Shown here: one piece after another, positions 1,228-9,225 of the stretch | How the letters are laid out: every line of letters starts with the position of its first letter | How positions within the stretch are numbered: the stretch's first letter is position 1 | Origin: Chloroflexota bacterium | GTDB taxonomy: Bacteria > Chloroflexota > Limnocylindria > P2-11E | DNA length: 64,000 bases | Assembly: GCA_005889275.1 (NCBI GenBank) | Contig: VBFI01000044.1 | Coordinates: 22,509-86,508, forward strand | Direction: 5' to 3' | Made by a program: the position numbers and the translations under genes | The notes under the pieces: model-generated | Told to the model about the DNA's origin: nothing | The model's database searches: none | The model's input: only the letters and a program-made list of their open reading frames with translations

Positions 1228-1785
1228 TTGACCCGTTCGTGGATCGCGGTCGGCACCCAATCGGTGGGTGGGGGTACTAGTACTTTGCTCCTAATTCGGC
1301 GCTTAGCCGTGGAGCGTGAACGCTGGCTGTCCCCGCGCGAATTCGGTGAGCTGTGGGCGCTCTCGCAGCTCTCGCCGGGTATCCATCTCGTAGCCCTCGC
1401 CGGTCTCGTCGGCGATCGCGTCGCCGGGTGGCGCGGCGTCGCGGCGACCGTCGGCGGAATGCTCGTCCCGGCGGCGGCGATCACCGTCGCGGTCACCGTC
1501 GCCTACGGCGCGATCGCCTCGTCGGAGATCGCGCGCGCGGCGCTCTCGGGCGTCGCGCCGACCGCCGCGGGGATGACACTCGCGACCGCCTTGCTCCTCA
1601 TCCGTTCCACGGCGCGTCGCGCGCGGGCGCAGGCCGCACTCGATCTCGCGGTGAGTGCGGCGGCGTTCGCCGCGGGGATCGCGGTGGCGATCCCGACGGT
1701 CGCCGCGATCGCGATTGGCGGCCTCATCGGCGTCGTCGCGCTCGGGCGCGAGCGTCCGACCTCTCGCGAAACACCGGTGGGGTGA
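1228..1785 (+). CDS. chrA: chromate transporter ChrA family, N-terminal-half-type short subunit
   Basis: ...SVGGGTSTLLLIRRLAVERERWLSPREFGELWALSQLSPG... matches the ChrA FGGG...E.V...WL...F.....A.SQ..PGP signature. The start is uncertain: TTG 1228, GTG 1264 and TTG 1285 are all in frame. The stop TGA overlaps the next chrA-half start (GTGA). Confidence 0.6.
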   Translation: MTRSWIAVGTQSVGGGTSTLLLIRRLAVERERWLSPREFGELWALSQLSPGIHLVALAGLVGDRVAGWRGVAATVGGMLVPAAAITVAVTVAYGAIASSEIARAALSGVAPTAAGMTLATALLLIRSTARRARAQAALDLAVSAAAFAAGIAVAIPTVAAIAIGGLIGVVALGRERPTSRETPVG

Positions 1786-2300
1786 TCGTGGATCCGGTCG
1801 GGCTGTTCCTCGTCTTCTTGAAGGCGTCGGCCCTCTCTCTCGGCGGCCTCTCGTCGCTCCCGCTGCTGCGCGCGGATCTCGTGGCGACGCACATCGCGAC
1901 CGACCAGCAGCTGGTGCAGGCGATCGCGATCGGTCGTGTCTCGACCGGACCGAACGGTCTCTACATCGTGAGCCTCGGTTACCTCGTCGGCGGTTTCGCG
2001 GGCGCGGCACTGGCGACGGTCGCCGCCGCGGTCCCGCCGCTCGTCATCATCCCGATCGCGCGGGTGTCGCGGCACCTGTTGCTCACGCCGCCGGTCGCGG
2101 GGCTCGTTCGCGGTGTCGCGCTCGCGACGGCCGGGCTCCTTGCCGCGAGCTCGCTCCAGATCCAGATCGCCGCGGGCGCGACGGCTTGGTGGCAGATCGC
2201 GCTGGCCGCGGCCGCGGTGGTCCTCTCGTACCGCGGGACGATCCATCCAGCGTTCGTCATCGTGGGCGGCGCCGCCGCTGGGATCCTCCTCGGGAGATAG
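1782..2300 (+). CDS. chrA: chromate transporter ChrA family, C-terminal-half-type short subunit
   Basis: MIVDPVGLFLVFLKASALSLGGLSSLPLLRADLVATH...QAIAIGRVSTGPNGLY is a second ChrA repeat with a polytopic hydrophobic profile. The GTG start at 1782 overlaps the upstream stop (GTGA). A split chrA pair is a known arrangement. Confidence 0.7.
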   Translation: MIVDPVGLFLVFLKASALSLGGLSSLPLLRADLVATHIATDQQLVQAIAIGRVSTGPNGLYIVSLGYLVGGFAGAALATVAAAVPPLVIIPIARVSRHLLLTPPVAGLVRGVALATAGLLAASSLQIQIAAGATAWWQIALAAAAVVLSYRGTIHPAFVIVGGAAAGILLGR

Positions 2301-2309
2301 CCGGTCGGA

Positions 2310-3311
2310 CTATTCCTCCGGCGCGATCGCGGCGACGATCGCGAGGTCTTGCGCGCGAACCTTCGCGGGATCGAACTTGCGCAGGTTCGCGGTCATCCTC
2401 GTGAGCAGCTCGGCCATGGTCATCGGGGGTTTCTCGCCCTTTTTCGCGGGGATCCAGCGGACGGGGTTGCACCGAGCGACCACCACCTGGCGAAGGTATG
2501 GGCTCTTCATCCCGCGTTCCTGGAGCGTCTTCACGTGCGCCGCGACGCGATCGTCGATGTCCATGAGCCGCACGGCCCACTGCTCGCGCTGGCGGAGCGC
2601 GGCGGGGAGAGCCGTCTCGAGGAACCGGTCGACGCGGCGGAGCATCGAGTTGTAGGCCGACCCCGCGAAGCGATCGCGCTTCTCGTACGCGCACCCGAGC
2701 GTGAGGAACGCCGGAGATTCGAAGCTCGTCGCGTGCTCCGATTCCTTCGAGCGCGGCTGCTCCTTGGCGAGCGATCGCGCCATGCGGATCACCTCGAGCG
2801 AGCGATCGCGCAGGTTGTGCGCCTTCTCGGTGTTGAGGGCGAGGATGCGGTAGGCAAGCGCCACGTCGTCGGTGAGCAGCGCGGTGATGGCCCGTTGGCC
2901 GAGCTGCTTCGCCGCGGCGATGCGGTGCCGGCCGTTCGGTGACCAGAAGACATCCTTCCCGGGGATGGCGATGACCGGATCGAGGAAGAGGCCCGCGGCG
3001 CCGATCGCTGTCGCGAGGCGGTCCGCGTGGGTCCGCGAGAGATCGCGCTGGAACGGCGTCGCCTCGACGGCGCCGAGCGGCAGCGACGCGAGGATGAGCG
3101 GCGCGCCCGCGTACGGATCGCGATACGCGGCGAGGACCGCCCCGTTCGCCTTCGCGATCTTCGCGCCGAGGTCCCGAACGGCGGGGTCGTCGAGCGTGAG
3201 CGCCGACGCCCCGGCCTCCGGACCCCGCGCCTCGGCCGGCCCGCGCCGGCGCCGCGTGGTCTTCTTCGGAGCGCCCTTCTTCGCGCTTGCCGCGCTCTTG
3301 GCCGGGCTCAT
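2310..3311 (-). CDS. ParB/Srx-fold (ParB-like nuclease domain) protein with a basic N-terminal tail
   Basis: ATG 3311..3309, 333 aa. It starts MSPAKSAASAKKGAPKKTTRRRRG. The motif DPVIAIPGKDVFWSPNGRHRIAAAKQLGQRAITALL matches the ParB-N DGHHR...AA..LG box. The start overlaps the MFS stop (ATGA). The 5' half of the tracked 724-aa ORF is an Arg-rich artefact. Confidence 0.7.
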   Translation of the reverse strand: MSPAKSAASAKKGAPKKTTRRRRGPAEARGPEAGASALTLDDPAVRDLGAKIAKANGAVLAAYRDPYAGAPLILASLPLGAVEATPFQRDLSRTHADRLATAIGAAGLFLDPVIAIPGKDVFWSPNGRHRIAAAKQLGQRAITALLTDDVALAYRILALNTEKAHNLRDRSLEVIRMARSLAKEQPRSKESEHATSFESPAFLTLGCAYEKRDRFAGSAYNSMLRRVDRFLETALPAALRQREQWAVRLMDIDDRVAAHVKTLQERGMKSPYLRQVVVARCNPVRWIPAKKGEKPPMTMAELLTRMTANLRKFDPAKVRAQDLAIVAAIAPEE

Positions 3312-4573
3312 GAATCCCCTCCTGCGTCCGCCGCCTGGGTGATCGCGCGTCGCGGCGCCACGGCGGCGAAGTCTCGCAGACGCCGCCCGCGGGCGGCGAC
3401 GCCCGCGATCACGCCACCGATCACGAGCGCCCCGACGGTCGCCGCTCCCGGTGCGCCGACCAGGGCGGTGGCGACGCCGGTCTCGAGCTGCGAAGCGTTC
3501 GTCAGCCCGCGCGCGACGATGAGGATGAACGACATCACCCGCCCGCGATACGCGTCTTCCGCGGCGAGCTGCGCGATCGCGCTGCGCATGGTCCCCCAGG
3601 TCGCGTCGGCGAAGCCGACGACCGCGAGGATCGCCATCGAGAGCGGGAAGGAGCGCGACCACGCGAAGCCCAGGAGCGCGAGGGCGTAGAGCGCCCCGGA
3701 CCCGAGCATGAACACGCCCTTGCGCCGCACGTCTCCGATGACGACGAGCAGCGCCATGCCCACGATCGCTCCGAACGCGATGCTCGAGAGCAGGAGGCCG
3801 AGGCCTTCGGCGCCCGCGCTCAGCACGTCGCGGGCGAAGATCGTCATGAGCGCCTGGTTGTGCCCGAAGACGGAGAGCGTCGCCTCGATCGCGAGTACCA
3901 GCGGGAGGATCCTGCTCGCCTGAACGTAACGCAGCCCGCCGACGAGCTCGCCGCGGAGCGATCCCCGGGCGCGCGCGGTCAGCGCGGGGACGCGCATCGC
4001 CATGAGTCCACCGATGATCGCGAAGTAGCTCGCGGCGTTCACGAAGAACGGCCACGCGACGCCCGCGCGCGCGATGAGCATTCCGGCGATCGCGGGGCCG
4101 ACGAGGTTCGAGGTCTGGAAGAGCATCGAGTTGAGCGTGATCGCGTTCTGGAGCTGGCCGCGCGGGAGGAGCGTGGGGAAAAGCGACTGCCGCGCGGGAG
4201 CATCGAATGCCGCGATCGTGGCGTTCAGGAAGCTGATGACGTAGATGTGCCAGAACACCACGTGCCCGCTGAGGACGAGCGCACCGAGGACGAGTGACGT
4301 CACGACCGAGGAGCTCTGGGTGATCAGGAGCAAGCGGCGGCGCTCGACCCGGTCGGCCACGGTCCCGCCGAGGAGCGCGAACGCGAAGATCGGTAGCGCC
4401 CGGAAGACGCCGCCGAGACCGAGCAGCAGCGGCGAGTCGGTGAGCTGATAGAGCAGCCAGCTCGTCGCGGTCAGCTCGATCCACGTACCGGACATCGAGA
4501 CGAGCTGCCCCGACCAGTAGAGCGCGTAGTTACGATGAGCGAGCGGTGCCAGCCCTGGCAGGAGGCGCGGCAC
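3308..4573 (-). CDS. MFS transporter (EntS/DHA3-like)
   Basis: 421 aa with about 12 TM helices. It carries the motif FRALPIFAFALLGGTVADRVERRRLL. The GTG start at 4573 overlaps the DUF421 stop (TAGTG). Confidence 0.85.
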   Translation of the reverse strand: MPRLLPGLAPLAHRNYALYWSGQLVSMSGTWIELTATSWLLYQLTDSPLLLGLGGVFRALPIFAFALLGGTVADRVERRRLLLITQSSSVVTSLVLGALVLSGHVVFWHIYVISFLNATIAAFDAPARQSLFPTLLPRGQLQNAITLNSMLFQTSNLVGPAIAGMLIARAGVAWPFFVNAASYFAIIGGLMAMRVPALTARARGSLRGELVGGLRYVQASRILPLVLAIEATLSVFGHNQALMTIFARDVLSAGAEGLGLLLSSIAFGAIVGMALLVVIGDVRRKGVFMLGSGALYALALLGFAWSRSFPLSMAILAVVGFADATWGTMRSAIAQLAAEDAYRGRVMSFILIVARGLTNASQLETGVATALVGAPGAATVGALVIGGVIAGVAARGRRLRDFAAVAPRRAITQAADAGGDS

Positions 4574-5091
4574 TAGGGCCGGTTGCGGAGCTGTCGGATC
4601 CGGCGCTGGGTCCGGATGGACTCGCCGGCTCGCGTCGGGATGATGCTGATCGATCCGTCCCGCTCGAGGATCGCGGCGCGGACGTCCTTGAGATCGTCGA
4701 TGCCGTGCTCGCGGGCGGACATCTCGATGTCCTCGTGCGTCACGTTCTCGCGCTCGAGGTGCTTCTCGATGAACTTACCGTCGTCCACCAGGAGCGTGGG
4801 CTCGCTCGTGAACAGATGCTCGAGGAGCGGCACGCGGTTCGCGACGCGCCCGAACGCGAGGTTCATCGCGACGAGCGTGCAGGCCGCCAGGATGCCACCG
4901 ATCAGCGAGTTGTCGCCGCCGGTCATCGCGTTCTGCACCGCGTTCGAGATGACCAGGATGACGACGAGGTCGACGGCGCTCATCTGCCCGAGCTCGCGCT
5001 TCCCGGCCACCCGGAGGAGCACGAGCACGACGATGTAGACGACCGCGGTGCGCAGGATGATCTCCCACCAGGGCGTCGTGAGGCCGAACAC
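4573..5091 (-). CDS. DUF421 (YetF-like) membrane protein
   Basis: WWEIILRTAVVYIVVLVLLRVAGKRELGQMSAVDLVVILVISNAVQNAM... matches the YetF/DUF421 N-terminus, followed by a soluble C-domain. GTG 5091 lies 4 nt after the RIO gene stop. The upstream part of the tracked ORF is Ser/Arg-rich junk. Confidence 0.7.
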   Translation of the reverse strand: MFGLTTPWWEIILRTAVVYIVVLVLLRVAGKRELGQMSAVDLVVILVISNAVQNAMTGGDNSLIGGILAACTLVAMNLAFGRVANRVPLLEHLFTSEPTLLVDDGKFIEKHLERENVTHEDIEMSAREHGIDDLKDVRAAILERDGSISIIPTRAGESIRTQRRIRQLRNRP

Positions 5092-5095
5092 GGGC

Positions 5096-5848
5096 TCAGG
5101 ATGACAAAAGCTGGCTGGCGAAGCGCGCGGGCGAATCCCCGACCACGGCGAGAGCCGCGCGGACGTCGATCGCGACGCCCATCCGGACGAAATACGAGGC
5201 CGCGCGCTCGACGTCTCGGACGAGCAGCTCTCGCGCCGCGGGATGGGTGACCGCGTCGACCGCCTGCGAGAAATCGATGAGAACGGCCCGCCCGCGCCAC
5301 CAGAGGACGTTGAACGCGGAGAGGTCCCCGTGCACGACGTCGGCCTCCAGCATGCGGCGGATCTCGAGCTGGACCTCGCGCCAGACCAGCCGGGCGGTCT
5401 CTCGGTCGAGATCGATCTCGGTGAGCCGCGGCGCGGCGCGGTCGCCGTCCCCGACGAACGCCATCCGGTATCCGTCGGCGACCTGCTCGACCGGCGGTGG
5501 CACGGTGACGCCGGCCTCGTACAGCCTCGTGAGCGTCGTCCACTCGTGGTCAATCCACCGCGCCTGGATCGCCTGCTGGCCGAAGCGCGTACGGTTCCGG
5601 ATCGCACGCGCCTCGCGCCGGCCTCCTGCGCCCCAGACACCGGCATAGCGATAGTCGTTGCGGAACCCACGGCTCCGCCGCTCCTTGAACCGCTTCTCGG
5701 CGATGAGCGACGTGCGCTCTGGGCCGATCCGCGCGATGAGATGCACCTCGCTTTCCTTGCCGGTCTTGAGCACGCCCATGGGGACGTCGTCGTACGGCGC
5801 TCCCACGAGCCAGTCGCTCGCGAAGAGTGGCGGTCGCGCCTCGGGCAT
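5096..5848 (-). CDS. RIO1-family atypical serine protein kinase
   Basis: Motifs ESEVHLIARIG, VHGDLSAFNVLWWRGRAVLIDFSQAV and RDVERAASYF match RIO1. ATG 5848 has a GGAGG Shine-Dalgarno 5 nt upstream. Confidence 0.8.
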   Translation of the reverse strand: MPEARPPLFASDWLVGAPYDDVPMGVLKTGKESEVHLIARIGPERTSLIAEKRFKERRSRGFRNDYRYAGVWGAGGRREARAIRNRTRFGQQAIQARWIDHEWTTLTRLYEAGVTVPPPVEQVADGYRMAFVGDGDRAAPRLTEIDLDRETARLVWREVQLEIRRMLEADVVHGDLSAFNVLWWRGRAVLIDFSQAVDAVTHPAARELLVRDVERAASYFVRMGVAIDVRAALAVVGDSPARFASQLLSS

Positions 5849-6019
5849 GCGTCCTCCAGGTCGGAGGCGGCCAAGAGCGAGCGGCGCGCGCGGCGCTAGA
5901 AGGTGGGCGGCCTCGGGGTAGGAAGGCCGGCGGCGTCGCGTGCGGTACGTTCGCTCAAATCCGGCCTCCTGTCGTCGATGTCGACCTCGCGGTCGCGCGC
6001 GAAGCGTAGCAGCCGCGGC

Positions 6020-6928
6020 CTAGGGGGTCGAGGTCGGCAGCGGACCGCGCGAAGGGAACGCCGGGACCACGAGCTCCTTCTCGAAGATCTTCGCGCGCGG
6101 CGTATCGCTCAGGAATCTCATGATGCCGGCGCTGATCGCGGCGGCGACGACATCCGCTTTGTCGATCATGAGCGCCCGGTCGTCGTCGTTGGAGAGGTAA
6201 CCCATCTCCAGGATCACCCCGGGGGTGAACGGGGAGACCGCATGCTGAAAGCGGGTCCAGCTGAAAACGTAGTAGCCCCGCATCGCGTTCGAGATGTGCG
6301 TGCCGTCGTAGTCGAGACCCGTCGCCTTCGCGTACGCGGTCTTGACGTCGTTCAGCAGGGCGTCTTCGTAAGGGCCGCGTCGCGCGCTGTGGGCCATCTT
6401 GAAACCGCTGAGCTCACCGACGCCGTCGCTGTCGGCGTGCAGCGCGACGACCGCGTCCGCGAGATACCCCGGCGGAATGGTCGTCGGCAGGATGTCGACG
6501 GCGATGCCGCTCGAGTTCAGCAGCACCGCGACGCGCTGCGCGATGTCGAGGTTCAGGTCGACCTCATTCACCCCCTCCCAGGAGGCGCCCGTCTGCACGA
6601 CGAGCTTGGTGAGCTCCGGGGGAGCCTCGTCGGTCTTCCAGTGACCGACCTGGATCCCGACACGTCGCGGGCCGATCGGAATGTTCTTGGGCAGGGGGAC
6701 GCGAAGCGTGCCGATAGCGCCCGGGCTCGCGCTCGGTCCGGGCGTTTGCAGGATCACGCCGCCGGGTGGAGCCGCGGCCGACCACGGGTCGTCCGGGTCA
6801 CCCGGGTCGGTACCGATCTGCCCGAGGGGCGCGCCCGCTGGGACGAATCCGGGATCGACGGCGGCGGTCACCGCCCGCGTCACGACCGCGCCGCTCACCG
6901 CGGCGTTCGCGACGAGAACGACCGCCAC
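6020..6928 (-). CDS. N-acetylmuramoyl-L-alanine amidase (Amidase_3, CwlD/AmiC-like), secreted
   Basis: GHWKTDEAPPEL...ALHADSDG...SGFKMAHSARRG matches Amidase_3. The GTG at 6928 is the first canonical start, but the in-frame upstream sequence (FLIRLLGGVAALAAVV) looks like the n-region of a signal peptide, so the true start may be non-canonical. Confidence 0.75.
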   Translation of the reverse strand: MAVVLVANAAVSGAVVTRAVTAAVDPGFVPAGAPLGQIGTDPGDPDDPWSAAAPPGGVILQTPGPSASPGAIGTLRVPLPKNIPIGPRRVGIQVGHWKTDEAPPELTKLVVQTGASWEGVNEVDLNLDIAQRVAVLLNSSGIAVDILPTTIPPGYLADAVVALHADSDGVGELSGFKMAHSARRGPYEDALLNDVKTAYAKATGLDYDGTHISNAMRGYYVFSWTRFQHAVSPFTPGVILEMGYLSNDDDRALMIDKADVVAAAISAGIMRFLSDTPRAKIFEKELVVPAFPSRGPLPTSTP

Positions 6929-7087: not shown

Positions 7088-8179
7088 ATGAAATGGGTTC
7101 GCCCGGGGCGAAGATCGGCCGTCCGACTTCCATCCGGCCGAACGACCGGCCGTCACTGGCAGACTTCGCCCGTGCGAGATCTCAACGTCCTGACCGACGA
7201 GCCGCTCAACGCGGAGACGAGGCTCGACCGGCAGGACGGCGCCATCACGCCGGCCGGTCGGCATTACGTGCGAACCCATTTCGCGATGCCCGACCCGAGC
7301 GCGGAGCTGGTCATCGAAGGCGATCGCCGGATCACCCTCGCGGCGCGGCAAGTCCGCGCCCTTGGGGGCACGACGCTGGCCGTCACGCTCGAATGCGCGG
7401 GCAACGGCCGGCGTTTCATCGAGCCTGCGACGCCGGGCGAGCAGTGGGGCCTCGGCGCCGTCGGCACGGCCGAATGGACCGGCGCGCCGCTCCGCCTGCT
7501 GCTCGAGCGGGCGGGAGTCGGTCCCGGCGCGAGGGAGGTGCTCTTCCGGGGAGCGGACAGAGGCGTGGTGGCGGACGTCGGCGCGCGTGTCGCCTACGAG
7601 CGGTCGCTTCCGATCGCCGACGCGCGCCGCGAAGACGTGATCGTCGCCTGGGCGATGAACGGCCGTCCGATCCCGCGCGAGCACGGCGGTCCGCTTCGGC
7701 TCGTCGTTCCCGGCTGGTATGGCATGGCGTCGGTGAAGTGGCTCGCCACGATCGCGGTGCTCGATCGATCCTTCGACGGCTTCTATCAGCGTGATCGCTA
7801 CGTCATCGACGGTCGACCGCTCCGCGAGATCGCGCCCCGCGCGGTCATCACCTCCCCCGGCGACGGCGCCCTGCTCTCCGGGTCGATACTCGAGATCAAG
7901 GGGTACGCGTGGTCCGGGGCGGCGCCCGTCGAGCGCGTGACGGTCGGCGTGGGAGCCGATCGAGCCGACGCGGACCTCGGCGAGGCCCCTTCGGCATATG
8001 CCTGGCGTCCCTTCACCAGGAAAGTCGCCCTCGCCTCCGCAGAGCGATTAGACCTGGTGGTGAGCGCGCGGGCGACCGACGCGGCGGGGAACGTTCAGCC
8101 GGAGGTCCCGGTTTGGAACGCGCTCGGCTACGGGAACAACGCGGTCCGGCCCGTGCGGGTCCGCCTCTCCCCGCGTTAA
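7088..8179 (+). CDS. sulfite oxidase-like molybdopterin oxidoreductase (Moco domain plus dimerisation domain, no heme domain)
   Basis: LTDEPLNAETRLDRQDGAITPAGRHYVRTHF...LECAGNGRR...PGWYGMASVKWLATI and a C-terminal Ig-like dimerisation domain. ATG 7088. No signal peptide. Confidence 0.8.
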   Translation: MKWVRPGRRSAVRLPSGRTTGRHWQTSPVRDLNVLTDEPLNAETRLDRQDGAITPAGRHYVRTHFAMPDPSAELVIEGDRRITLAARQVRALGGTTLAVTLECAGNGRRFIEPATPGEQWGLGAVGTAEWTGAPLRLLLERAGVGPGAREVLFRGADRGVVADVGARVAYERSLPIADARREDVIVAWAMNGRPIPREHGGPLRLVVPGWYGMASVKWLATIAVLDRSFDGFYQRDRYVIDGRPLREIAPRAVITSPGDGALLSGSILEIKGYAWSGAAPVERVTVGVGADRADADLGEAPSAYAWRPFTRKVALASAERLDLVVSARATDAAGNVQPEVPVWNALGYGNNAVRPVRVRLSPR

Positions 8180-9225
8180 GCGACTCCCTCGCGATCGGGC
8201 GCAAAGATCTGGCCGACGTCGTCCAGCATCGCTCCGGCGCGGCGGGCGACCTCGGGGAAGAGCGCCTGCGCTCCCACGATGTTCGACTCGGCGCCCGAGT
8301 GCGGGTTCACCACACCGTCGTCGACGCCGTCGGCCACGCGTCCGGCCACGCGGTCGTAGACCGGCTGCCCGGCCGGATTGCGGCCATCGAACCACGCGCG
8401 CGCGTGATCGCGCCATCGGGCGTAGGCCGCCTCGCCCGTGGCGATGTGCAGGCGGTCCATCACGTAGACGGCGGACGCCACGTCGTACGGCAGCACCCTG
8501 CGCTCGGGGAAGGCCTGCTCGATGTCCGGCGTAATCACGCTGCGCGCGCTGCGCCGCGCGATCTCGAGGAGATCCGGACGATCCAGCACGACCGCGGCCT
8601 CCGCGAGGACTCCCTCCTGCACGTGCCCCCAAAGGTGCGGACGCTCCTCATTGGGTGAGTTCAGCAGCACGTCGCCGCGGCGGCACTCGGCGATCTCCTC
8701 GCACCAGCGTTCGAGGGTCTCGCGCAGCACCGGGGTCAGCCCGGCGTGCATGAGGTCCAGCGCCGCGAGGACATGGATCGCGCGGACGTCCGCCGGAGCC
8801 TCGTGCGCCGTCGCCCAGGCGAAGCCACGAGCGAGCGGGACCGCGACCCGATCGTCGCGGAGCGCCAGGTGCGCCTTCGCGAGCGCGCGGACGGCGCGCG
8901 CCTGCCAGAACCCGCCGCCGGGGTAGGAGGTCGGGCCCTCGTCGTTGATCGCGCCATCCCAGTCGTGGAGGAAGTTGTGGAACCGCCCGTCCTCCCGCTG
9001 CATGTAGAGGACGAAGTCGAGAAGTCCGCTCCCCCACGCGCGCAGGCGAGCGTCTCCGGTCTCGTGCGCGAGATCGAGGAACAGGATCACCGCTCGCGAG
9101 GCGTCGTCCACGCAGGCGACACCCTCGAACCCGAGATCCGCCGCGACGAGCGCGCGGTCCTCGCCGTTCGCGTAGACCGAGAGCGCGAGTGCGCGCGGCC
9201 CCACCGCGGGGACCCGGCGCGTCAA
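8176..9225 (-). CDS. (alpha/alpha)6-barrel, AGE/six-hairpin glycosidase-like protein (putative sugar epimerase or hydrolase)
   Basis: 349 aa. The family assignment is tentative (GGGFWQARAVRAL...YVMDRLHIATGE). TTG start 9225, 13 nt after the GH130 stop, so it is last in the GT4-GH130 operon. Confidence 0.4.
   Translation of the reverse strand: MTRRVPAVGPRALALSVYANGEDRALVAADLGFEGVACVDDASRAVILFLDLAHETGDARLRAWGSGLLDFVLYMQREDGRFHNFLHDWDGAINDEGPTSYPGGGFWQARAVRALAKAHLALRDDRVAVPLARGFAWATAHEAPADVRAIHVLAALDLMHAGLTPVLRETLERWCEEIAECRRGDVLLNSPNEERPHLWGHVQEGVLAEAAVVLDRPDLLEIARRSARSVITPDIEQAFPERRVLPYDVASAVYVMDRLHIATGEAAYARWRDHARAWFDGRNPAGQPVYDRVAGRVADGVDDGVVNPHSGAESNIVGAQALFPEVARRAGAMLDDVGQIFAPDREGVA

Follow-up and report, generated by a model that had tools for sequence, protein, structure and literature searches.

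RIO kinases of the RioB type have been described as the member of the RIO family "usually found in bacteria", with a cellular role not yet assigned (PMC5815136), and NCBIfam holds a model for bacterial RIO1-like kinases (NF041645). Bacterial RIO kinases are thus not new in the locus analysed here, and the premise of the earlier note on this DNA, that a bacterial copy is itself unusual, is a weak one. Likewise established is the class of orphan ParB-fold proteins, whose extra domains are lineage-specific and whose NTP preference varies (Kaljevic et al., PNAS 2025, PMC12704722). Proteins of the YetF family (DUF421) are reported to alter inner-membrane properties in Bacillus spores (PMC10126465, PMC12548441). 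Members of these three families, together with an MFS exporter, are encoded by four adjacent genes in the 64,000-nucleotide stretch of Chloroflexota DNA that we analysed (the window). We agree with the earlier note that this combination belongs to no described system, and none of the four proteins gave a match in PADLOC-DB v2 at E <= 0.1.

The four genes, their junctions and the leader

The four co-oriented genes, their three junctions and their assignment to RIO, DUF421, MFS and ParB-like families are exactly as had been read from the letters alone. The first product is a RIO-type atypical kinase/ATPase of the RioB-like kind (5096..5848, minus strand; 250 aa), which matches Pfam RIO1 (PF01163) with 110.4 bits against a cutoff of 22 (E = 1.1e-31) and Rio1 in the PDB with E = 3.5e-17; the archaeal Rio1 structures 1ZP9 and 4OTP are counted among its closest known counterparts. 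The conserved catalytic residues that the earlier note had required of a true kinase-like gene are present: the P-loop (T29-GKESE), K52, the catalytic loop (H173-GDLSAFN180) and the metal-binding motif (I191-DFSQ195) align to Rio1 of A. fulgidus and human, the signature is invariant across seven orthologues, and it corresponds to the P-loop TGKESE, ATP-binding Lys, HGDLSxxN loop and IDxSQ metal-binding Asp of RioB and the bacterial RIO1-like kinases. Even though the PA4780-family model NF041645 is its best NCBIfam match, the score of 138.8 bits misses the equivalog cutoff of 350 by a wide margin, so that the protein belongs to a separate bacterial RIO subfamily.

The second gene (4573..5091, minus strand; 172 aa, GTG start) encodes a YetF-family membrane protein, with 56.6 bits against a gathering score of 23.6 for the YetF C-terminal domain (PF04239), 22.8 bits, just under the cutoff of 26.5, for the N-terminal TM domain YetF_N (PF20730), and E = 1.7e-4 for the YetF crystal structure 3C6F; its homologues measure 168-172 aa. 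To our knowledge, the YetF family has been studied in Bacillus spores only. The product of the third gene (3308..4573, minus strand; 421 aa, GTG start) is an EntS/DHA3-like exporter of the MFS_3 family, matching PF05977 over residues 7-399 with 159.4 bits against a cutoff of 27 (E = 1.5e-46) and MFS_1 with E = 2.7e-21, while its matches to TIGR00900 and the EntS models remain below their equivalog cutoffs. Both proteins thus resemble known YetF/DUF421 and EntS-type MFS_3 proteins above the Pfam thresholds. The last gene (2310..3311, minus strand) encodes an orphan ParB/Srx (ParB-CTPase-fold) protein of 333 aa, here called ParBl. A 724-aa open reading frame at 2310..4484 was discarded as a high-GC artefact; ParBl in fact begins with the ATG of position 3311, behind an AGGAGG Shine-Dalgarno sequence, and the homologues have 332-340 aa.

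Upstream, a gene for an N-acetylmuramoyl-L-alanine amidase (Amidase_3; 6020..6928, minus strand; PF01520, 53.8 bits) lies 171 nt from RIO and is syntenic in two sister clades of Candidatus Limnocylindria, A and B, the window belonging to clade B. The downstream boundary is a convergent chromate-transporter gene (1353..2300, plus strand; PF02417, 73.8 bits), whose end lies 9 nt from the ParBl stop. The start listed for this open reading frame is over-extended, and the chromate-transporter/ParBl gene pair recurs in one other locus (L090).

RIO and DUF421 are separated by a 4-nt gap (TGA-GCCC-GTG), DUF421 and MFS overlap by 1 nt (TAGTG, with the MFS GTG on the DUF421 stop), and MFS and ParBl overlap by 4 nt (ATGA). 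Among related loci, the first gap measures 4 nt in 86 of 88, the second spacing ranges from -1 to 7 nt, and the third is -4 nt in 40 of 54; given this stability over 54-88 loci, the tight spacing is not due to chance. Strong Shine-Dalgarno sequences precede RIO (GGAGG) and ParBl, and none is obvious for DUF421 and MFS, which are therefore probably translated by ribosomes that terminate and reinitiate at the 4-nt gap and at TAGTG. A scan of the cluster for sigma-70-like promoters and minus-strand terminators found none inside it, which in this phylum is weak evidence, and a single promoter within the 171 bp that precede RIO would drive a polycistronic mRNA. By their sequence, then, the four genes form a predicted lineage-specific operon with operon-like, translationally coupled junctions, and they are likely to be co-expressed. 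GC3 is alike and very high (0.88-0.96) in all five genes and thus gives no sign of recent import; a recent horizontal insertion of DUF421-MFS in particular is unsupported, since GC and GC3 of the pair are indistinguishable from those of the neighbours. No integrase, tRNA or repeat signature was found at the locus, and no Rfam family reached its gathering score anywhere in the window.

The region upstream of RIO contains a leader (5896..5969, minus strand) that is kept at the nucleotide level in clades A and B, where it occurs in 58 of 59 distinct RIO-upstream sequences, and that is missing where RIO is missing. It comprises an SD-like GGAGGCCGG at 5969-5961 and a TTG/ATG-initiated small open reading frame (5958-5896; 12-21 codons) that begins MSERTARDAAGL, and an internal CCGGCCTTCC (5930-5921) can pair with the SD-like stretch by complementarity. 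The data establish no structured RNA and no translated peptide: the minimum free energy of the hairpin is no better than that of shuffled sequence (z = -0.06), the alifold stem is invariant and displays no covariation, and the reading frame has no third-codon-position bias.

The orphan ParB-fold protein

ParBl is a widespread, uncharacterised orphan family and the most interesting part of the locus. At least 599 species-level genomes carry it as a conserved, single-copy gene of the chromosome, and they represent many phyla, among them Chloroflexota, Gammaproteobacteria, Myxococcota, Planctomycetota, Verrucomicrobiota and Acidobacteriota; the family comprises about 1,050 clusters at 50% identity, keeps 53-60% identity across phyla and is covered by no Pfam model. 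The lysine-rich N-terminal tail noticed earlier is real: residues 1 to about 35 are disordered (pLDDT < 55) and basic, with five Lys and four Arg in the first 24, and most relatives, though not every one, share this basic tail, which is rich in K, R, S and T. The protein possesses the ParB N-terminal (ParB/Srx) fold (about residues 43-160), with PFQR as box I, NGRHR as box II and LNTEK as box III, followed by a helical C-terminal domain (about 167-329) that has no match among solved structures.

The box that had been called intact and DGHHR-like, NGRHRIAAAKQLG, is equally real and aligns with ParB box II (GERRxRA) when the family profile is compared with H. pylori ParB (E = 4e-10). Boxes I and III resemble those of ParB, and box II is of the sulfiredoxin/SerK kind; it reads NGRHRIA in the window and NGxHR in the family consensus, with a variable residue (x) at the Glu position. 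The NTP-pocket residues of ParB are kept (Q/R of box I, G..R of box II and N of box III). However, different from the canonical ParB, Noc and KorB clamps, box II lacks the catalytic Glu and the first Arg of GERRxR, and a G-x-H-R box of the Srx/SerK type implies a protein without the catalytic Glu of CTP-hydrolysing ParBs. Furthermore, the C-terminal 170 aa, a helical domain, gave no convincing match to the canonical HTH and dimerisation domains, the window protein falls short of the Pfam threshold for ParB_N, and no Pfam-annotated ParBl neighbourhood contains a ParA/CbiA-family gene. A canonical chromosome-partition ParB, the name that JGI gives to some homologues, was rejected on these grounds (box II, ParA, ParB_N).

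Models of SerK and SbnI are matched by 8 and 5 of 20 family members, with best E-values of 3.9e-11 and 3.4e-8, respectively. This similarity covers only the ParB-fold core of about 100 aa and scores 20.6 against a family cutoff of 380, so orthology to SerK or SbnI was rejected. The position of the catalytic base of SerK, Glu30, falls on Q88/R89 of PFQR in pairwise HMMER alignments, which are not structural. Among the orphans of the ParB-CTPase-fold survey (PMC12704722), which include SerK, SbnI, sulfiredoxin, PadC and DndB, ParBl is an orthologue of none, since its profile scores stay far under their family cutoffs and the alignment is limited to the core fold; different from many of them, it is not tied to mobile elements.

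Conservation of the gene neighbourhood

All four genes stand in this order in the window, in a further 12 loci of clade B and in each of the 44 metagenome loci of sufficient length, and the layout is restricted to this one clade of Candidatus Limnocylindria, which are soil Chloroflexota. In the seven loci of clade A, RIO is directly beside ParBl, 5-43 nt upstream and with neither DUF421 nor MFS, whereas in clade B the two genes bracket the operon. Two loci (L008 and L093) contain DUF421-MFS-ParBl without RIO, the amidase and DUF421 of L093, on an 888-kb contig, being separated by just 73 nt; in a third (L013), ABC-transporter genes occupy the place where RIO would stand, and ParBl is kept. In the ParBl tree these three RIO-less loci, which represent two lineages (L008/L093 and L013), nest inside RIO-containing clades. 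DUF421 and MFS always travel together, and their pairing was seen, within the loci examined, in this clade only.

RIO, DUF421 and MFS are all missing beside ParBl in a further seven loci of Limnocylindria and in 47 of other phyla whose sequence extends 4 kb or more upstream. These neighbourhoods correspond to flanks of 6-8 kb, and RIO may be located elsewhere in genomes where it is not adjacent; the RIO-centred metagenome scan, at 65% identity or more, reached clade B only, so its view of RIO contexts is that of this clade. All-versus-all clustering of the open reading frames within 5 kb of ParBl disclosed no conserved neighbour, the largest real clusters comprising at most 16 of the 87 loci once clusters 1-4, high-GC shadow frames overlapping ParBl, had been set aside.

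Thus the co-conservation expected by the earlier note fails outside one clade. Even within it, the flanking genes (GT, GH130, a hypothetical gene, Mo-oxidoreductases and the amidase) are equally syntenic, so that the conservation of the four genes does not exceed the background, and the co-occurrence beyond background synteny, in distant genomes, that defines a conserved multi-gene module was not found. Of the proposal that tight coupling implies co-translation and joint function, the coupled junctions stand and the joint system does not, its partners being lost and its layout clade-restricted. The adjacency of RIO and ParBl nevertheless persists through substantial divergence, at identities as low as 58% for RIO and 76% for ParBl, with gaps of at most 43 nt in both arrangements, which makes a regulatory connection of the two proteins possible. 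The extreme stability of the four-gene spacing, seen in 44 of 44 loci, likewise speaks against a purely separate action of the products.

Origin and possible roles of the cluster

We consider it probable that the leader, RIO, YetF/DUF421, MFS_3 and ParBl form a chromosomal operon restricted to this Limnocylindria lineage, whose products most likely act separately. A layout present in one clade only looks more like a local ordering of genes than like a new system of several parts; the reading as a new joint system finds no support, and an obligatory four-part machine is not likely. The comparison of loci and the ParBl tree show that the genes were assembled stepwise inside a syntenic block: RIO came to adjoin ParBl in the ancestor of the two sister clades, DUF421-MFS behaves as one insertion/deletion unit between them, and RIO with its leader disappeared later at least twice, with ParBl retained. 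RIO is predicted to be an atypical kinase/ATPase, YetF and MFS a membrane/export pair, and ParBl a stand-alone NTP-binding protein, probably nucleic-acid-associated.

It is possible to hypothesize, even though we hold it unlikely, that RIO and ParBl are a clade-specific signalling pair in which the kinase phosphorylates or gates ParBl, for instance at its Ser/Thr-rich basic tail, and so controls a nucleic-acid- or NTP-dependent activity, with DUF421-MFS as a passenger insertion. The immediate vicinity or bracketing of the two genes, the invariant catalytic residues of RIO and the K-, R-, S- and T-rich tail are consistent with such a pair. However, RIO was lost at least twice where ParBl was kept, the tail and the whole ParBl family are unchanged in genomes without an adjacent RIO, and the adjacency arose once only, in a generally syntenic block. 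An extended form, with leader, RIO and ParBl (and YetF-MFS in clade B) as a Limnocylindria-specific signalling module in which a kinase/ATPase of the RioB type governs a new, NTP-dependent kind of ParB-fold protein that binds the nucleoid or nucleic acid, is decidedly improbable; if true, it would provide the first function for both the bacterial RIO kinases and a widespread orphan ParB family. Slightly better placed than this extended form, and still quite unlikely, is an envelope or membrane-stress operon, possibly including the amidase, where amidase, YetF-like protein and MFS share a physiology and RIO and ParBl are co-regulated. The constant position of Amidase_3 immediately upstream in clades A and B, the inner-membrane effects reported for YetF proteins in spores (above) and the inseparability of DUF421 and MFS speak for it; against it, 171 nt with a conserved leader part the amidase from RIO, clade A is wholly devoid of DUF421 and MFS, and the functional evidence on YetF comes from sporulating bacteria.

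The production and export of a small molecule or peptide, with ParBl as a SerK/SbnI-like kinase, or the leader frame as a precursor modified by RIO, and MFS_3 as exporter, would agree with the SerK and SbnI matches, the G-x-H-R box shared with both and with Srx, the EntS-like transporter and the conserved small frame before RIO. We regard it as very improbable, given that the match is confined to the core and far under its cutoff, that Q88/R89 occupy the Glu30 position, that biosynthetic genes are lacking nearby and ParBl stands alone in most genomes, that the small frame is conserved as nucleotides and not in a codon-like manner, and that clade A has no exporter. The least probable reading, to which we give hardly any credence, is the defence option of the earlier note, namely an anti-phage or mobile-element module using a ParB-like nuclease/NTPase. 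ParB-fold domains are known in DndB, GmrSD and other defence proteins, but PADLOC, blank for the four window proteins, returned for 20 family members only weak ParB-domain cross-matches (PD-Lambda-5_A, DndB and GmrSD_N) in a few distant relatives, and a defence system was rejected; stable chromosomal synteny, native codon usage, the lack of mobile-element signatures and the high conservation of ParBl, different from fast-evolving defence genes, also argue against it.

With the separate action of the products as the preferred reading, the locus, an ordinary lineage-specific operon, has little weight as a new multi-component system, the gene combination being local to one uncultured soil lineage, and its by-products are of some value: a large orphan ParB-CTPase-fold family and leads on bacterial RIO. 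For the function of RioB, the conserved leader and the recurrent neighbour are two testable leads. Moreover, its hybrid ParB/Srx boxes, unmatched C-terminal domain and absence of a conserved neighbour make ParBl a clean candidate for the question of NTP specificity raised by the orphan survey (PMC12704722).

Gene layout and the RIO kinase

The region 2310-5848 of the window holds four genes, all on the minus strand and in the same orientation. In operon order, they encode a RIO kinase (5848..5096, 250 aa; Pfam RIO1 E = 1.1e-31, 110 bits against a cutoff of 22), a DUF421/YetF protein with a GTG start (5091..4573; PF04239, 56.6 bits; PDB YetF 3C6F, E = 1.7e-4), an MFS_3/EntS-like transporter also starting with GTG (4573..3308; PF05977, E = 1.5e-46), and a ParB-like protein, here called ParBl (3311..2310, 333 aa). 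Upstream, an Amidase_3 gene (6928..6020) lies on the same strand as the operon, at 171 nt from RIO, and on the downstream side the end of a convergent chromate-transporter gene is 9 nt from the ParBl stop. We confirmed that the junctions reported in an earlier note, which in gene order are TGA-GCCC-GTG, TAGTG, and ATGA, are all exact. Strong Shine-Dalgarno sequences precede RIO (GGAGG) and ParBl (AGGAGG), and inspection of the DUF421 and MFS starts revealed no obvious one, which is consistent with translational coupling. The GC content is about 70%, with a GC3 of 0.88 to 0.96 in all five genes, and the names of homologues identify the host as a member of Candidatus Limnocylindria (Chloroflexota). 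With native codon usage, a stable chromosomal context, and no Rfam family, the region shows no sign of a mobile element.

A spurious 724-aa ORF occupies 2310-4484 on the minus strand, since the ParBl frame meets no stop codon over the 1,173 nt 5' of the true ATG, across the whole MFS gene; it is a high-GC artefact able to mislead an ORF-based reading, and both strands carry many further long shadow ORFs.

In the RIO kinase, the P-loop TGKESE, Lys52, the catalytic loop HGDLSAFN, and the metal-binding IDFSQ line up with their counterparts in archaeal and human Rio1 (E = 3.5e-17). The catalytic motifs are unchanged across seven orthologues sharing 59 to 73% identity, and thus the enzyme is probably active. 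Among NCBIfam models, the top score belongs to the bacterial "PA4780 family RIO1-like protein kinase" (138.8 bits, with an equivalog cutoff of 350), ahead of haloarchaeal Rio1 at 97 bits. RioB is described as the RIO member typical of bacteria (PMC5815136); a bacterial RIO, which had been regarded as unusual, is therefore not so in itself.

ParBl as an orphan ParB-fold protein

ParBl alone matched no Pfam family, even at E = 10, and gave a weak match to SerK (NCBIfam E = 2e-4; PDB E = 0.04). Its family is nonetheless large, with 7,998 close matches in a 90%-clustered database, mostly from Limnocylindria and often automatically named "ParB family," and 1,054 representatives in a 50%-clustered library (E <= 1e-3). 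Members occur in at least 599 species-level genomes, with identity still at 53 to 60%, and their hosts include Chloroflexota, Gammaproteobacteria (many Steroidobacteraceae), Myxococcota, Planctomycetota, Verrucomicrobiota, Acidobacteriota, and Eisenbacteria, among others.

In an alignment of 20 members (28 to 55% identity to the query), the invariant residues fall in three motifs, PTPFQRDLS..H, LDP...W.PNG.HR, and LALNTEKAHNL. The profile of this alignment matched Helicobacter pylori ParB (4UMK) with E = 4.4e-10, pairing PFQ-R with PYQPR (box I), G-n-H-R with G-E-R-R (box II), and L-N-t-E-K with E-N-I-Q-R (box III). Furthermore, Pfam ParB_N was matched by half of the 20 members and DUF6551, GmrSD_N, or DndB by a few, while the NCBIfam models recovered were Noc (11 members), SerK (8), parB_part (8), and SbnI (5). 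Thus, ParBl consists of a ParB-CTPase-fold domain flanked by a disordered basic tail and by a helical domain without a match. It follows ParB in boxes I and III, but, different from canonical ParB, box II lacks the catalytic Glu and the first Arg and resembles instead the G-x-H-R of Srx, SerK, SbnI, and DndB.

According to a 2025 fold survey, orphan ParB-fold proteins that carry additional, lineage-specific domains are common and bind CTP, ATP, or GTP, with a specificity that is not readable from sequence (PMC12704722). We infer that ParBl binds an NTP and probably associates with nucleic acid.

Distribution and history of the gene arrangement

Neighbourhoods were gathered around ParBl (87 loci), RIO, and DUF421 and scored by tblastn with the window proteins. 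In clade B, to which the window belongs, all four genes keep this layout in the window itself, in 12 more loci, and in each of the 44 metagenome loci that extend far enough downstream, with identity down to 65% for RIO and about 78% for ParBl. The RIO-DUF421 gap is 4 nt in 86 of 88 loci, the DUF421-MFS spacing ranges from -1 to 7 nt, and the MFS-ParBl spacing is -4 nt in 40 of 54 loci. In the sister clade A (7 loci), the order is Amidase-RIO-ParBl, with a RIO-ParBl gap of 5 to 43 nt and neither DUF421 nor MFS. Elsewhere in Limnocylindria (7 loci with at least 4 kb upstream), neither RIO nor DUF421 was found, and the sole MFS matches are 29 to 31% identical and on the opposite strand; in other phyla (47 loci, again with at least 4 kb upstream), RIO, DUF421, and MFS are all absent near ParBl. 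All-versus-all clustering of the neighbouring ORFs retrieved no real neighbour common to more than 16 of the 87 loci.

The stability of the four-gene layout is not above background synteny, because the surrounding genes (glycosyltransferase, GH130, a hypothetical gene, two Mo-oxidoreductases, and the amidase) are equally syntenic throughout clades A and B. Joint function, which the earlier note had read from the tight coupling, does not find support in this distribution, as co-conservation fails beyond one clade.

The hypothetical gene (8176-9225, minus strand), between the GH130 and Mo-oxidoreductase genes, encodes a conserved 349-aa protein with no Pfam match and keeps its syntenic position at every clade A and B locus. 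LigD fragments (LigD_N, LigD_Prim-Pol, and DNA ligase) recur 3 to 8 kb from ParBl in several Limnocylindria contigs of both arrangements (L001:11703-13266, L003:11419-12081, and L002:16008-17002) and are probably background synteny. A few kb beyond the downstream end of the operon, related contigs carry a tandem pair of Frankia_peptide (PF14407) genes (L006:13714-15226 and L007:11630-13142), which adjoin a Peptidase_M50/cNMP-binding gene and could represent a RiPP-like locus.

RIO has been lost in both clades. Two clade B loci, L008 and L093 (the latter on an 888-kb contig), read Amidase-DUF421-MFS-ParBl, and a 73-nt amidase-DUF421 remnant (L008:6074-6146 and L093:5928-6000) stands where RIO and its leader are expected, indicating a clean deletion. 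In clade A, three ABC-transporter genes (a solute-binding protein and two permeases) take the place of RIO at L013:4367-7910. The ParBl tree implies that RIO and ParBl came to lie side by side once, that the DUF421-MFS pair was inserted or deleted once, and that RIO was lost independently at least twice with ParBl kept.

As the best explanation, we consider it likely that this is a real lineage-specific operon, probably polycistronic, which arose as genes were juxtaposed within a chromosomal block of conserved synteny, and whose products most likely act independently. These products are a RioB-type (bacterial-class) kinase/ATPase, a YetF-like membrane protein and an MFS_3 exporter whose genes behave as a two-gene indel unit, and ParBl as a stand-alone orphan ParB-fold protein with putative NTP binding. 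The comparisons show the identities of the genes, the junctions and how well these are conserved, the confinement of the layout to one clade, and the independent RIO losses; a single transcript, translational coupling, and functional independence are what we infer for the whole. A regulatory pair acting from RIO to ParBl, the two genes being adjacent in clade A, is unlikely, and ParBl persists where RIO is gone. An envelope-stress operon including the amidase, which precedes RIO and also belongs to the generally syntenic flank, seems rather improbable. A module for producing and exporting a metabolite or peptide could accommodate the MFS_3 exporter, which clade A loci lack, and appears very unlikely; a defence module, one of the roles entertained earlier, is scarcely credible, and PADLOC returned no match for the four window proteins. 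The operon proposed in the earlier note stands, and the new system does not, the four-gene layout being confined to one clade.

A conserved leader upstream of RIO

The amidase-RIO spacer contains a conserved element (5969-5896, minus strand), with other copies at L002:5322-5405, L088:6864-6950, and L001:7044-7120. Of 59 distinct sequences upstream of RIO in clades A and B, 58 contain the element, and it is deleted along with RIO in L008 and L093. An SD-like GGAGGCCGG lies a few bases 5' of an ATG (TTG in the window), which opens an sORF of 12 to 21 codons (MSERTARDAAGL... / MSVRIARDAAGLHIAGAPGTL) with the predicted peptide pattern MS[E/V]R[T/I]ARDAAGL.... The sORF is conserved at the nucleotide level (per-position entropies of 0.22, 0.30, and 0.31). 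No covariation was detected in the leader stem, whose folding energy does not improve on that of shuffled sequence (z = -0.06). Within the sORF, CCGGCCTCC is the exact reverse complement of the SD-like sequence. The element may encode a leader peptide, form a hairpin that sequesters the SD, or serve as a DNA operator.
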